Sequence record: MK907227.1
From: Escherichia phage vB_EcoS-12210III
Direction: 5' to 3' (one strand)
DNA length: 44,219 bases
Part shown: piece after piece, positions 30,728 through 42,670 of the stretch
Position numbering within the stretch: the stretch's first letter is position 1
Layout of the letters: the number at the start of each line of letters is the position of its first letter
Translations under genes and position numbers: made by a program
The notes under the pieces: model-generated
The model's database searches: none
Told to the model about the DNA's origin: nothing
What the model saw: the letters and a program-made list of their open reading frames with translations, nothing else

Positions 30728-31201
30728 TTACTCTTTAGCTTTCCGTGCTGCTTCGTTAGCGGCCTTAATTTTGCGCCAGGACCGACACTCTGGCTTGGTG
30801 GCTAATTCAGCCTCGGTAACCACGCGAAGCATGTGGCGTTTTTTGCACCGAAGTGTCAGCGGCTTGCCGTTGCCGTCGAATTGCAAGTCTGGTCGGCAGA
30901 ATGTTGCGCGAAAACCTTCTCCATTTCGCTTATAGTAGTTGTGCGAAAGCTGAGCACCACGCGCCGACATCATGCCGCGCTTAAACCATTCTTCTACAGC
31001 CTGTGGTGTTACCTTTAATTGCTTTGCCATATTTGCCTTTGTGCCGAAGAAATCAAGAACAATTTCCAGCCGCGCACGTAAACCCGCTCTTACTTCATCT
31101 TTTAAAACGTAGTAACCTGAAGGTCGTTTTCGCTGCTTTTTATCTTCAGTGCGGATGGTTCCGTTATTGCCGTTAATGGTTCGCTTGTCTACTGCATTCA
31201 T
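30728..31201 (-). CDS. HTH DNA-binding protein (Cro/CI-like, putative regulator)
   Basis: 157 aa; HTH-like segment KANMAKQLKVTPQAVEEWFKRG; basic N-terminus; divergent from the helicase gene. Confidence 0.5.
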   Translation of the reverse strand: MNAVDKRTINGNNGTIRTEDKKQRKRPSGYYVLKDEVRAGLRARLEIVLDFFGTKANMAKQLKVTPQAVEEWFKRGMMSARGAQLSHNYYKRNGEGFRATFCRPDLQFDGNGKPLTLRCKKRHMLRVVTEAELATKPECRSWRKIKAANEAARKAKE

Positions 31202-34829: not shown

Positions 34830-34911
34830 AGATCCTAATACTAGTAGCATTAGTCCCACTATTTAGCTTTACTATCTTATACTTTATCGTAATGAATTAA
34901 GGAACTTATAA

Positions 34912-36042
34912 ATGGCAACTGCAAAAATTACCAACGAAGAACTGCGCGAAGAGCTGGCTAATGGCATGACAAACAAGGCAATCGCAGAGAAGTACGGAAT
35001 GAACATTCGCAACGTTGAATTGCGTCGTAGTAAATTAGCTAAGCAAGGTGAGGGGCATGGCCGTGATGTTAGCAACCTAATTCCTCAAGGTTACGCTGTC
35101 AAAGGTGTGTCTAGCTTAATTGGTGCCGACGGTGAGATTAAGCAACAGTGGGTTAAATCTGACATCGACAAAGAGAAGCAAGAAGAAATGATGCTTCAGG
35201 CAATTCAGGCCCTAACTGATGAGTTGCCACGCGAGAAACCAAAGCCGCTCAGTAAGTCATCATTTGAGGATACCTTAAGCCTGTACCCCGTATTCGACTT
35301 ACACATTGGCGCAATGGCTCACCATGCCGAGTGTGGTGAGAACTACAGCACTGAAATTGCAGAGCGCATTCTTAATAGCTACTTTGATTACGCGGTTGCA
35401 AAGGCTCCTAACTCAAAGAAGGCTGTATTGCTGATTGGTGGTGACTTCCTTCACTCTGACGGAATGGAAGCGGTAACTCCAACGAGTCGTCATATTCTTG
35501 ACCAAGATAGCCGTTATCACAAATTGGTTTACGTAGCAGTACGAGCAACCCGCAGAGCAATTAGCCGGATGCTTGATAAGCACGCTGAGATTGAGGTTCA
35601 GATTATCCCTGGAAACCACGACCTCTCAGGTATGATTTGGCTTCGTGCTGCAATGGCGGCGTTCTATATGGATGAGCCTCGAGTTAATGTTGACGCATCT
35701 CCTGCAGCGCTTCACGTAACGCAGTTTGGAAAGACGCTGCTTGGTTACTGTCATGGACATGAACTCAAAAAGCCTGATACCAGACTATCAACACTGGCTC
35801 GTGACCATCGTAAGGCTTTTGGTGAGTCTGAGTATGTTTACACTCATAGTGGCCATTACCACCATCAAACGATTACAGAGGGTAACTTAGGTATCGATGA
35901 GTCTCATGGTCAGCTTGGTTGCAAGGATGCGTACAGTGCCAACGGTGGTTATCGCTCTTATCGCCAGGCGTCGGTAATCATCTACAGCCCTAAATTCGGA
36001 GAGATTGGTCGATTCACTTGCCGTCCCGAAATGTTTAGTTAA
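34912..36042 (+). CDS. Metallophosphoesterase (calcineurin-like) with N-terminal HTH-like segment
   Basis: Motifs DLH, GGDFLH, GNHD, GH, GHYHH in the canonical order; N-terminal TNKAIAEKYGMNIRNVELRR is HTH-like. Confidence 0.6.
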   Translation: MATAKITNEELREELANGMTNKAIAEKYGMNIRNVELRRSKLAKQGEGHGRDVSNLIPQGYAVKGVSSLIGADGEIKQQWVKSDIDKEKQEEMMLQAIQALTDELPREKPKPLSKSSFEDTLSLYPVFDLHIGAMAHHAECGENYSTEIAERILNSYFDYAVAKAPNSKKAVLLIGGDFLHSDGMEAVTPTSRHILDQDSRYHKLVYVAVRATRRAISRMLDKHAEIEVQIIPGNHDLSGMIWLRAAMAAFYMDEPRVNVDASPAALHVTQFGKTLLGYCHGHELKKPDTRLSTLARDHRKAFGESEYVYTHSGHYHHQTITEGNLGIDESHGQLGCKDAYSANGGYRSYRQASVIIYSPKFGEIGRFTCRPEMFS

Positions 36043-36126: not shown

Positions 36127-36303
36127 ATGACTAAAGTGATTTATTGCACCAAGAACAACTCAAAGACACTGCCATTTACAGTTAACCAGCCGTACAATGC
36201 AGAGTACCAGGGTGATGGATATTACAAGATTTACGGCGATGACATGACTCACATTTTAGCGCCGATTGATGGTTCGTTAGTTGAATTTATTATCGCTGAC
36301 TAG
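36127..36303 (+). CDS. Small hypothetical protein (58 aa)
   Basis: ATG 36127 downstream of the promoter and leader; terminator-like hairpin follows. Confidence 0.35.
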   Translation: MTKVIYCTKNNSKTLPFTVNQPYNAEYQGDGYYKIYGDDMTHILAPIDGSLVEFIIAD

Positions 36304-36330
36304 CGCAGAAAAAACATAGCTTTACAAGCG

Positions 36331-36354
36331 GGGGGCCTTTGGCTCCCTTTTTTT
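36331..36354 (+). terminator. Terminator (GGGGGCC-TTT-GGCTCCC with one G-U pair, T7)
   Basis: Read from sequence. Confidence 0.5.
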
Positions 36355-36432
36355 ATGCTTCTTTTCCGAGCGGTGCTAATGTATCATTCTTTTATTAACT
36401 TAAGCATTGACAAATACATAAAGGTGGATCAC

Positions 36433-36648
36433 ATGAGAGAAGTAATTAACGCCGCTACAGCATCAACTGGCGGTGCTGCGTTTACTGGTGCGGCAACTGG
36501 TCAAATGACTATAGCAATAATCAGCCTTATCGCTCTAATCATTTTCGGAGCCTGGGGTGCTTACTGGAAGTATAAGGATAGTCAAGCTATCAGGCGGGCG
36601 CTTGAATCTGGAGACTTGAAAACAGCAATCAATATAAGGAGCAAATAA
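36433..36648 (+). CDS. Holin (putative, single transmembrane segment)
   Basis: 71 aa from ATG 36433 (RBS AAGGTGGA); hydrophobic segment MTIAIISLIALIIFGAWGAY with charged C-terminus; directly upstream of the endolysin gene. Confidence 0.55.
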   Translation: MREVINAATASTGGAAFTGAATGQMTIAIISLIALIIFGAWGAYWKYKDSQAIRRALESGDLKTAINIRSK

Positions 36649-38178: not shown

Positions 38179-39762
38179 TCACCCCAATAGTCGTGGATTA
38201 ATGTAAACTTTATCACCAATCAGGCACGTGTAGTTTTTCTCATCAAGCATTGGCAGCAAGTGGTCTTTAATCTTCGTCATTACTCCCGCTTGAGCCTCGA
38301 ACGGCTTAACCTTGCGAGCCGCTTCATATAGCGAACGAATACCTACTACTCCTTTCCCGTTTTTGCCTTGCTTAATCAGGATATCAATCAGCTTATTCAT
38401 CTCTGCATTGTCGCCAGCGTGACCCGCGGCGTTAGCGGATGACAAATAAGTCTTGCTAAGTTCCTGGAACATAATTACAGCTTCCTGCATTGTATCAAGC
38501 TCAATTTCTCTCGACTTCTGAGGGCTACCGCCATTTGGGTTGAACCAGTTACGCACAGTGTGAAGAACCGCCGCAATCCTGATTGCCTGCTTATCGAACT
38601 TACCCAACGCGCCTCGCAACATTGTGTGTGAATACTTCCCGCCGTCAGCAAGGTGCGGTTCCATCTCCTGACGCGCGCGGTTGAGATATTTCATTGCTGA
38701 ATTACTAACTGTCAACTTAACTTCTTGTTCATTCATGATTTCATGAACCAGACGGAAGTAGTTAGCCTTAAGCTCACCATCTATCGGTTCGTAAGTTGAC
38801 TCACCATTTTCATCAACAAACACACGCTCGCCCAGGAATGACTTTTCACGTACAAGCAGGAAACGTTCAGATACACCGATACCACGCGCGCCAGCGTTCA
38901 TGATCGCATTGATTGTTTCATCCTGTGCAATTACAGAGATGCAACCCATAGCAACAAAGCTCATATTGTTTTCTGCGTTAGCACGCGCAATTGACACGTT
39001 ACCAGCATCCCAGGCCTTCAGCACAAGCTCGCTGTTCGTTTTCTTCGAACCATCACCATAGGTCATACCAAGCAGTGAGTTGACGCTGGTTGCTTCATCT
39101 GATATTACAGCAAAGCTGCCCTGGCGGTTGTTTATTCGCGCAAGTCCTTCCGGTGTGGTATCTGACACAGGGAAAACGATATCACATAGTTTCTCGAGTT
39201 TTTCCTCTAGTTCCTCTTTCTCCTCAAAAAGTGAAGCCATCTCTGACGGAGATTTTTCCTGCTTCATCTCTTTGGATAATTCAGATAGTTTTGCCATAAT
39301 TTTCTTGCGCTCACGCTTTCTCACTTTATTTAGTCGCTCAGTCTCAGCAATCATTGGAGCAATTGAAAGTGAGTTGATTGCTGATTTACCCGTCGATGGT
39401 GGCTGACTCGTTACGACGTACAGCGAAGTCGGTTGCTGCGTTCCGTGATACTCAACAGTAAATCGACCCAGCATTGCAGCGGAAATACACCCCAGGAAGT
39501 GCATGTAAGCTGACGACTCAGGGAACTGAACAGAACGGGCAATATTAGCTGACAGCTTACCAACAACATCAATGTCATTACCTAGTGAGATTACTGGATA
39601 CTTGTCATTAGCTGCATCAATCTCGACTGGTGCTTTCCAGAATGATTGAGACTGGCGATAGCCATTAGCATTAATGGCGACGCGCAGGGGCGGGAGGTTT
39701 TCTGCGGCAGCAATTGCCATAACCTGTTCAACAGATAGTTTATCTTCGTTGAAATCGAACAT
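38179..39762 (-). CDS. P-loop NTPase, DUF3987-like (putative replication/primase-associated ATPase)
   Basis: 527 aa; Walker A-like SQPPSTGKS and Walker B-like AVISDEAT; its N- and C-terminal segments are paralogous to the protein at 42248..42670. Confidence 0.6.
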   Translation of the reverse strand: MFDFNEDKLSVEQVMAIAAAENLPPLRVAINANGYRQSQSFWKAPVEIDAANDKYPVISLGNDIDVVGKLSANIARSVQFPESSAYMHFLGCISAAMLGRFTVEYHGTQQPTSLYVVTSQPPSTGKSAINSLSIAPMIAETERLNKVRKRERKKIMAKLSELSKEMKQEKSPSEMASLFEEKEELEEKLEKLCDIVFPVSDTTPEGLARINNRQGSFAVISDEATSVNSLLGMTYGDGSKKTNSELVLKAWDAGNVSIARANAENNMSFVAMGCISVIAQDETINAIMNAGARGIGVSERFLLVREKSFLGERVFVDENGESTYEPIDGELKANYFRLVHEIMNEQEVKLTVSNSAMKYLNRARQEMEPHLADGGKYSHTMLRGALGKFDKQAIRIAAVLHTVRNWFNPNGGSPQKSREIELDTMQEAVIMFQELSKTYLSSANAAGHAGDNAEMNKLIDILIKQGKNGKGVVGIRSLYEAARKVKPFEAQAGVMTKIKDHLLPMLDEKNYTCLIGDKVYINPRLLG

Positions 39763-41699: not shown

Positions 41700-42248
41700 A
41701 TGCAGAAAGTAACACTTGGCGAAGTTATCCGTGAGATGGTGCGTAACGCAATGGCGTCTGAGAACGGCGAGTTCAAAGTTCCGGTAAGCCAGATATTCAA
41801 ACTTGTTCGCGGCAAGCCATATCCAGAAATGGAGTATGACGAAGAGACTGACGAGATCCTAAACCTGGCAGACAGGGCGATGCCTGAACTCAAGAACTCG
41901 TACATCTACAATACCGTGTCGCGAATGACTGAACTACGAGACGCCAACAAGCGAGCGCGCTACAAGTTCATCTGGATTGACGATGAAGGCGAGCAAACCA
42001 GGCCGGGTAATTTCGACGGCGATGGTGCTGATAAATACCTGGTAATTTATATTGAGAACGGCTCTCACTGGACTGGCAATCGTGAGAAGAAGAAGCAGGA
42101 AGCAGAGAAAGAGGTCGCCATCATTGAAAGGTTCAAGGCTCGGTTACTCAAGATCACACCTAACGTTATCGACCTGCAAGGCGAGCAGAAAGAGGGCGCT
42201 CTCATTGCCCTGGCCCGTTACTATGAAATGATTAAGGAGACTAACTGA
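41700..42248 (+). CDS. Hypothetical protein (182 aa)
   Basis: ORF from the track; leader contains AAACGAAACGAG. Confidence 0.55.
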   Translation: MQKVTLGEVIREMVRNAMASENGEFKVPVSQIFKLVRGKPYPEMEYDEETDEILNLADRAMPELKNSYIYNTVSRMTELRDANKRARYKFIWIDDEGEQTRPGNFDGDGADKYLVIYIENGSHWTGNREKKKQEAEKEVAIIERFKARLLKITPNVIDLQGEQKEGALIALARYYEMIKETN

Positions 42249-42670
42249 TGTTTAATTTCGATGAAGAGAAACTGACGGACGAGCAGATTATGAATATTGC
42301 TATCCAAGATGGGCTGCCACCGCTACTGGTTGCAATCAATGCTAACGGGTATCGACAAACGCAAGGCTTCTGGGGTCATCCCGATGCGTCAGAAGTATAC
42401 AAAGATGAAGCGCTTGGCGTTCTGATTAATATTATTAGGAAAATGGCAAAGAACGGCAAGGGCGTGCTTGGTATCAGGTCTTTATACGAAGGCGCTCGCA
42501 GGGCGAAAAGAATTAAGGGTGGCAATGACAGGCTAATGGCGCGCATTAAGGATGAGTTTATCCCAGCCCTAGAGAGTATGAATCTAGCTTGCCTCATTGG
42601 AGATAAGATTTATGTTCATCCGGCAATCCTCGAGGAGAGCTGGGAGCCTAACTTCAAAGTATACGAATGA
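42248..42670 (+). CDS. Mini-paralog of the DUF3987-like NTPase termini (140 aa; lacks the ATPase core)
   Basis: N-terminus MFNFDEEKLTDEQIMNIA...LPPLLVAINANGYRQTQGFW matches the NTPase N-terminus; C-terminus KNGKGVLGIRSLYEGAR...CLIGDKIYVHP matches the NTPase C-terminus. Confidence 0.6.
   Translation: MFNFDEEKLTDEQIMNIAIQDGLPPLLVAINANGYRQTQGFWGHPDASEVYKDEALGVLINIIRKMAKNGKGVLGIRSLYEGARRAKRIKGGNDRLMARIKDEFIPALESMNLACLIGDKIYVHPAILEESWEPNFKVYE

Follow-up and report, generated by a model that had tools for sequence, protein, structure and literature searches.

The stretch of DNA analyzed here (the window, 44,219 bp) matched 42 GenBank records at 99% or more, including those of Escherichia phages vB_EcoS-12397V and vB_EcoS-12210I and their relatives, which are classified in the genus Veterinaerplatzvirus (Drexlerviridae, Braunvirinae). 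All 25 of the matching records listed are 44,219 bp long and 100% identical to the window, with only the start point and strand varying, and the 42 records look like the same phage isolated repeatedly, with its assembly arbitrarily permuted. Because it is identical to Veterinaerplatzvirus genomes, the window is the complete genome of a T1-like siphovirus, a coliphage. PHROG scans of the window showed the nonstructural genes to be the usual T1 set: genes for a RecE-like exonuclease, Erf, SSB, a primase, and a transcriptional regulator, and then those for a 664-aa helicase, a VRR-NUC-type nuclease, several small ORFs, and a metallophosphoesterase with a helix-turn-helix (HTH), downstream of which lie a small SH3-like ORF and the genes for a holin, a SAR endolysin, and a spanin. 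No DNA polymerase gene was found among the ORFs of this complete 44-kb genome. The genome carries one tRNA-Arg(TCT) gene (1923-2000, +). The features at and around the HTH-metallophosphoesterase gene are as follows.

30728-31201: dedicated transcriptional regulator
34899-34904 (+): ribosome-binding site AAGGAA, 7 nt before the ATG, read from the sequence
34912-36042 (+): HTH-metallophosphoesterase coding sequence, 376 aa, ATG start, stop codon included
36127-36303 (+): SH3-like ORF, 58 aa, PHROG 4788
36330-36355 (+): intrinsic-terminator-like hairpin (36330-36348) and T-run, between the SH3-like ORF and the holin gene
38179-39762 (-): 527-aa helicase

In the window and in T1 alike, the gene closes a rightward operon that begins with the helicase and the VRR-NUC nuclease. 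The terminator-like hairpin is strong, consisting of GGGGGGCC-TTT-GGCTCCCT followed by seven T, and the holin/endolysin/spanin cassette lies beyond it, set apart from the HTH-metallophosphoesterase gene and the SH3-like ORF. In T1, a terminator is annotated immediately after the orthologue, ST16. Many Drexlerviridae encode a stand-alone SH3/DUF7244 protein between an "exonuclease" and the pinholin (PMC13164509), and the 58-aa ORF of the window sits at that place. The longest holin ORF (36355-36648, +) would encode 97 aa, its PHROG holin match begins at residue 27, and GenBank annotates a protein of 71 aa; the true holin start is probably an internal ATG about 78 nt into this ORF. Elsewhere in the window, a 140-aa ORF (42248-42670, +) repeats the ~90 C-terminal residues of the 527-aa helicase in stand-alone form, so that this helicase domain is present twice in the genome; PHROG 7327 is common to both proteins, and the 140-aa ORF aligns to positions 438 to 514 of the PHROG 2373 profile.

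A widespread phage protein family

The 376-aa protein is a member of PHROG 704, named "DNA repair exonuclease" (E = 1.6e-147, with residues 4 to 375 aligned to positions 2 to 389 of the 390 in the profile). Its orthologues are ST16 of T1 and gp14 of Shigella phage Sf12, the latter with 90% amino acid identity, and identity to the proteins of the T1-like coliphages tunus and BEK7 is about 55%. ST16 occupies the same place, upstream of the lysis cassette, and no notable difference was seen between the window protein and ST16 or PHROG 704, of which it is an ordinary member. The gene is a core gene of the Drexlerviridae, and in 508 of 522 of them it immediately precedes the lysis cassette. Few enzymes are, like its product, conserved in almost every T1-like phage.

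Relatives were detected by tblastn in 2,049 phage records, including those of Escherichia, Klebsiella, Salmonella, Vibrio, Campylobacter, Flavobacterium, and Rhodobacter phages and of N4-like roseophages, and an exhaustive HMMER search returned 4,723 cluster representatives (50% identity) at E ≤ 1e-3. The family also occurs in Jersey-like and many environmental phages and in prophages. The window copy is therefore real and typical but not new, and it belongs to a very large family that is already catalogued. Database names for the relatives include "DNA repair exonuclease," "winged helix-turn-helix domain-containing protein," "metallophosphoesterase," and even "oxidoreductase"; these names are automatic, with "DNA repair exonuclease" assigned by homology alone. 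No experimental or functional study of the ST16 family was found in the literature, where the family is represented by genome-announcement annotations and one pan-genome statement, and two candidate papers, one on Avs sensors and one on Druantia and Zorya, do not mention the protein. All NCBIfam matches of the window protein were below threshold (PdeM, the "anti-phage phosphoesterase" DS9_1, and LuxR-type response regulators), and phmmer with the single protein found no match among PDB sequences. The window protein is best described as a member of a distinct, HTH-fused branch of nuclease-like metallophosphoesterases.

A protein 94% identical to that of the window, within the same gene order, was found on a 46.7-kb contig (NZ_VSMK01000220.1) of a Nitratidesulfovibrio liaohensis assembly. 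This contig most likely represents coliphage contamination of the assembly.

Catalytic domain and fold

The C-terminal part of the protein is occupied by the metallophosphoesterase (MPE) domain, whose features are as follows.

35266-36039 (+): binuclear MPE domain, residues 119 to 376
35296-35304 (+): motif I, D129-L-H131, metal ligands, invariant in 143 sequences
35440-35460 (+): motif II, G177-D178-F-L-H181-S-D183, with D178 as the bridging metal ligand
35476-35514 (+): conserved loop between motifs II and III, with T189, L196, D197, D199, and R201 each at least 90% conserved
35611-35622 (+): motif III, G234-N235-H236-D237, with N235 as a metal ligand
35752-35760 (+): motif IV, H281-G-H283, with H281 as an invariant metal ligand
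35851-35865 (+): motif V, G314-H315-Y-H317-H318, with H315 and H317 as metal ligands

An earlier note on this DNA had read a phosphoesterase motif series in the protein, and the whole series is present (DLH at residues 129 to 131, GDFLH at 177 to 181, GNHD at 234 to 237, HGH at 281 to 283, and GHYHH at 314 to 318). An alignment of 143 sequences, mostly 30 to 45% identical to the window protein, revealed D129, H131, G177, D178, N235, H236, H281, and H317 to be invariant and G74, W80, H181, D183, T189, D197, D199, R201, D237, R257, H315, and D339 to be nearly so. All seven metal ligands (D129, H131, D178, N235, H281, H315, and H317) are thus invariant or at least 95% conserved. The family-specific loop between motifs II and III may be a substrate-binding element.

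The five motifs with their seven metal ligands and the four-layer alpha/beta-beta/alpha sandwich fold are those of the calcineurin-like superfamily (PF00149). The score of the window protein against the PF00149 (Metallophos) model is 20.1 bits (E = 9.4e-4), just below the gathering cutoff of 21.5, and 31 of 120 relatives match the model at E ≤ 0.01. The family is too divergent for this model, and the subthreshold score is therefore no argument against an MPE fold. In comparisons with solved structures, the fold score was 15.8 for the PolD DP1 proofreading exonuclease, 14.7 for Staphylococcus aureus SbcD, 14.6 for Thermotoga maritima Mre11, 14.0 for MJ0936, 13.5 for LpxH, 12.1 to 13.3 for other Mre11 chains, 12.3 for Rv0805, and 9.3 to 9.5 for PPP-type protein phosphatases; the top Foldseek match was an Mre11 chain (E = 9e-8). 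DNA nucleases are thus the top matches of the modeled fold, by a narrow margin over generic phosphodiesterases, a ranking that is not decisive by itself. When the family profile was aligned by hhalign with the single Escherichia coli sequences of SbcD, CpdA, and PphA, only short, motif-length matches were obtained, with probabilities below 6%.

The earlier note had named nucleases, protein phosphatases, and enzymes that degrade signaling nucleotides as options and had cautioned against choosing a function by eye. That caution was justified; the set of options is supported overall, and the fold and the histidines of the GDxxH and GNH motifs favor a nuclease. Lambda NinI (lambda-PPase) is a phage enzyme of the MPE superfamily, and ninI closes the early region, ahead of the late and lysis genes. 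The window gene has a similar place, last in the early region and followed by late or lysis genes, and this resemblance, with the shared superfamily, is what would speak for a Ser/Thr/Tyr protein phosphatase that, like NinI, acts on host or phage proteins. NinI, however, is in the PPP family, a different subfamily, and the PPP signature motifs GDxxDRG and GNHE are absent from the window protein, whose fold similarity to PPP-type enzymes is low. A protein phosphatase was rejected on both counts and is extremely improbable.

N-terminal domain and gene neighborhoods

The N-terminal part of the protein comprises two elements, delimited in the structural model.

34933-35043 (+): three-helix HTH, residues 8 to 44 (helices 8 to 16, 21 to 28, and 32 to 44)
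35086-35223 (+): connector, residues 59 to 104, a beta-hairpin (61 to 85) followed by a long helix (87 to 104)

The connector is family specific, its hairpin carries the near-invariant G74 and W80, and no match to the beta-hairpin-helix arrangement was found among solved structures. When 120 relatives were scanned singly, their N termini matched the Pfam families HTH_1 (29 proteins), HTH_8 (22), HTH_50 (16), Sigma70_r4_2 (13; best E, 1.5e-9), and GerE (7 at E ≤ 0.01; best E, 2.4e-8), while the window protein itself scored 13.9 bits against GerE (PF00196; E = 0.044), below the gathering threshold of 23.5. A profile of its first 48 residues recognizes 126 of 149 representatives of the family, and a second profile, of the 112 N-terminal residues, finds the solved DNA-binding domains of VraR, RhlR, GerE, and NarL with E values from 3e-4 to 5e-3. 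In addition, the three-helix bundle superposes on solved DNA-binding HTHs. The HTH-like segment proposed in the earlier note is thereby borne out at residues 8 to 44, and the profile-HMM and structure comparisons that the note had named as a check uphold both the HTH and the phosphoesterase fold. On profile and model grounds the HTH is confirmed, is ancestral to the family, and is predicted to bind DNA.

Retrieval of 80 viral loci and clustering of their ORFs revealed three recurrent arrangements. In the first, that of the T1-like phages, the lysis cassette lies downstream of the gene. In the second, seen at 21 of 86 loci, the gene is directly followed by one or two genes, for a Pnkp-type HAD phosphatase (PF25109, E = 1.4e-14) and a dNMP kinase (PHROG 139). 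Three MPE clades with only 40 to 45% identity contribute these loci, from T1-like phages, Jersey-like phages, and environmental phages with a T7-type RNA polymerase. Two distant relatives (L055 and L057) have genes for a family A DNA polymerase, an exonuclease (PHROG 107), and endonuclease VII ahead of the HTH-MPE gene and genes for the HAD phosphatase, the dNMP kinase, and an ATP-dependent DNA ligase after it. In roseophage EE36phi1, the gene follows those for dCMP deaminase, dNTP pyrophosphohydrolase, and thymidylate synthase. The third arrangement is that of prophages, represented by 35 bacterial loci, mostly in the chromosomes of Proteobacteria, where the gene is often located one or two genes after an endolysin homologue and two to five genes before a large terminase; the terminases of these prophage-like loci are of three different Pfam families (L095, L100, L102, and L121; L092, L106, L111, and L115). 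In all three arrangements, the gene is at the end of the DNA metabolism region, beside the start of the late functions.

Two observations on the neighbors are of separate interest. The "polynucleotide kinase" proteins of PHROG 415, for example, ST64 of T1 (L005, 4948-5478) and a protein of L057 (9168-9746), contain the Pnkp HAD phosphatase domain only, with a DxDGT motif and a match to PF25109 and without a P-loop kinase, so that the name is misleading; the adjoining P-loop gene encodes a separate member of the dNMP kinase family (PHROG 139). In Salmonella phage Jersey (L002, 4609-7170), the gene shares a rightward island of four genes, inserted amid leftward tail genes, with one for a protein with an Ant-like antirepressor domain (PHROG 63).

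The HTH and the position of the gene raise the possibility of a bifunctional regulator, in which the HTH would bind phage operators or promoters and switch late, lysis, or packaging transcription, with the MPE domain serving as sensor or effector enzyme. There is precedent in HTH-enzyme regulators such as BirA, and the position between endolysin and terminase genes in the prophage-like loci is that of lambda Q. Consistent with this possibility, the HTH is of the LuxR, sigma region 4, or resolvase type found in transcription factors, the gene directly precedes the lysis cassette in nearly all Drexlerviridae, a terminator-like hairpin (annotated as a terminator in T1) stands before that cassette, the prophage-like loci place the gene between endolysin and terminases of three Pfam families, and there is a weak PHROG match to "late transcriptional activator" (E = 0.046). 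Conservation, however, is much stronger in the catalytic residues than in the HTH (mean identity to the window protein across the family, 0.39 for the MPE domain versus 0.23 for the HTH), and selection therefore acts mainly on the enzyme. Furthermore, the phage already has a dedicated regulator (30728-31201), the T7-like and N4-like relatives embed the gene among DNA and nucleotide metabolism genes rather than at a late-operon boundary, and the promoter scan found no sigma-70-like promoter in the 82 bp that precede the gene and no excess of promoter-like sites around it over shuffled expectation; no repeated operator was found near it. We therefore regard a regulator as rather unlikely.

The second arrangement suggests an end-healing phosphoesterase that would act on damaged DNA or RNA ends, either as a 2',3'-cyclic phosphodiesterase or as a 3'-phosphatase. 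It would play the part of the MPE-type phosphatase domain of bacterial Pnkp and, with a neighboring kinase and ligase, repair breaks made by host defense nucleases. The MPE superfamily includes 2',3'-cyclic phosphodiesterases (PMC7826289). Three clades have an adjoining Pnkp-type HAD phosphatase and P-loop kinase, to which L055 and L057 add the ATP-dependent ligase, and the window protein has a weak NCBIfam match to the ligase-associated PdeM (E = 0.0012). Yet the adjoining HAD protein already supplies a 3'-phosphatase, and the adjoining kinase is of the dNMP kinase family (PHROG 139, E of ~1e-41 to 1e-47) rather than a polynucleotide kinase. Motif II of the lambda phosphatase and CthPnkp type is GDxxDRG, in place of which the window protein has GDFLHSDG. 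The window phage, moreover, has none of the partner genes, neither that for the HAD phosphatase nor that for the dNMP kinase, and we judge end healing to be quite improbable.

As an antidefense phosphodiesterase, the enzyme would destroy the signaling nucleotides of host immunity (cyclic oligonucleotides or cNMPs). This is the signaling option of the earlier note, and we consider it very improbable, because the gene belongs to the syntenic core and not to the variable accessory genes, the ancestral DNA-binding HTH would have no role, and the nuclease-type histidines are conserved; moreover, PADLOC gave no match for the window protein, and no antidefense report on the family was found in the literature.

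Comparison with known nucleases and proposed function

The MPE of Pseudomonas putida is a structurally solved single-stranded DNA endonuclease in which His81 (of GDxxH) and His113 (of GNH) are essential for DNA cleavage (PMC7826289). By motif position rather than superposition, H181 of the window protein corresponds to His81 and H236 to His113, and the spacing is the same as that of D78/H81 and N112/H113, with H181 at position +3 from the bridging Asp and H236 at +1 from the ligand Asn. Like the P. putida MPE (PdeM), the window protein is a stand-alone MPE without a capping domain or an ATPase partner, with 24% identity over 141 aligned residues. As with the ligase-associated PdeM, an ATP-dependent ligase gene is found near the HTH-MPE gene in relatives, though only in the distant L055 and L057, three genes downstream. 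The score against the PdeM clade model TIGR04123 is 18.2 bits (E = 0.0012), with a cutoff of 150, and the window lacks the PdeM-type operon of an Lhr-core helicase, an ATP-dependent ligase, and Exo, with neither a ligase nor an Lhr gene present. Membership in the PdeM clade was rejected on these grounds.

The nuclease-type motifs GDFLH181 and GNH236D align in the profile search with GDLLH(S) and GNHD of T. maritima Mre11. Identity to Mre11/SbcD proteins, which are homodimers with ATP-stimulated dsDNA exonuclease and hairpin endonuclease activity, is only 13 to 18%, however, and sequence profiles reach Mre11/SbcD only at an E value of ~0.04. The window protein differs further in having the N-terminal HTH and beta-hairpin connector and in lacking a C-terminal capping domain, since it ends 59 residues past motif V. 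No gene for a Rad50/SbcC partner was found among the ORFs of the complete 44-kb genome, in which the large nonstructural ORFs scanned against PHROG encode the tail fiber, helicases, primase, and RecE-like exonuclease and the remaining large ORFs, outside that scan, were assigned structural or packaging roles by T1 gene order only. A canonical SbcCD/Mre11-Rad50 system was therefore rejected, and the protein is not classed as a member of the Mre11/SbcD family, although it probably works like an Mre11/SbcD nuclease subunit. Identity to archaeal PolD DP1, a 3'-5' proofreading exonuclease, is 12%, and DP1 is a polymerase component with an OB domain, whereas the window phage has no DNA polymerase.

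The best reading, which we hold with moderate confidence, is that of a stand-alone, HTH-tethered, Mn-dependent DNA nuclease (phosphodiesterase) that acts independently of Rad50. The seven ligands would hold two metals, probably Mn2+, which would activate water for attack on a substrate that is presumably DNA, with endonucleolytic and/or exonucleolytic cleavage. H236 would be the leaving-group acid (a candidate general acid) and H181 would contact the backbone phosphate, the roles proposed for the equivalent histidines of the P. putida MPE. The LuxR/resolvase-like HTH, joined by the conserved beta-hairpin and helix, could keep the enzyme on DNA, and no Rad50/SbcC-type ATPase would be needed for its action. 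As the product of the last enzyme gene of the replication-recombination operon, the nuclease would most likely break down host DNA to supply nucleotide (dNMP) salvage and/or remove ends, hairpins, and branches from replicating phage DNA before packaging. Some of the ends produced by the P. putida MPE, and likewise by SbcCD, carry a 3'-phosphate (PMC7826289), which we suggest as a rationale for the adjacent 3'-phosphatase in relatives.

T1-type phages often contaminate laboratories and are candidates for therapy. A solo, Mre11-like nuclease tethered by an HTH, should the protein prove to be one, would illustrate how small phages manage without a Rad50 ATPase and would shed light on the breakdown of host DNA or the processing of concatemers in T1-type phages. 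A further hypothesis, which we consider unlikely, extends the nuclease reading to a new class of DNA-guided, partner-independent MPE nucleases in which the HTH guides the cut to particular sites or structures when replication gives way to packaging and lysis. Such an enzyme might, for instance, initiate or tidy up the processing of concatemers or link the state of the DNA to late gene expression, and this would explain why the gene keeps to the lysis/terminase boundary in phages and prophages that are unrelated and whose terminases are of different families.
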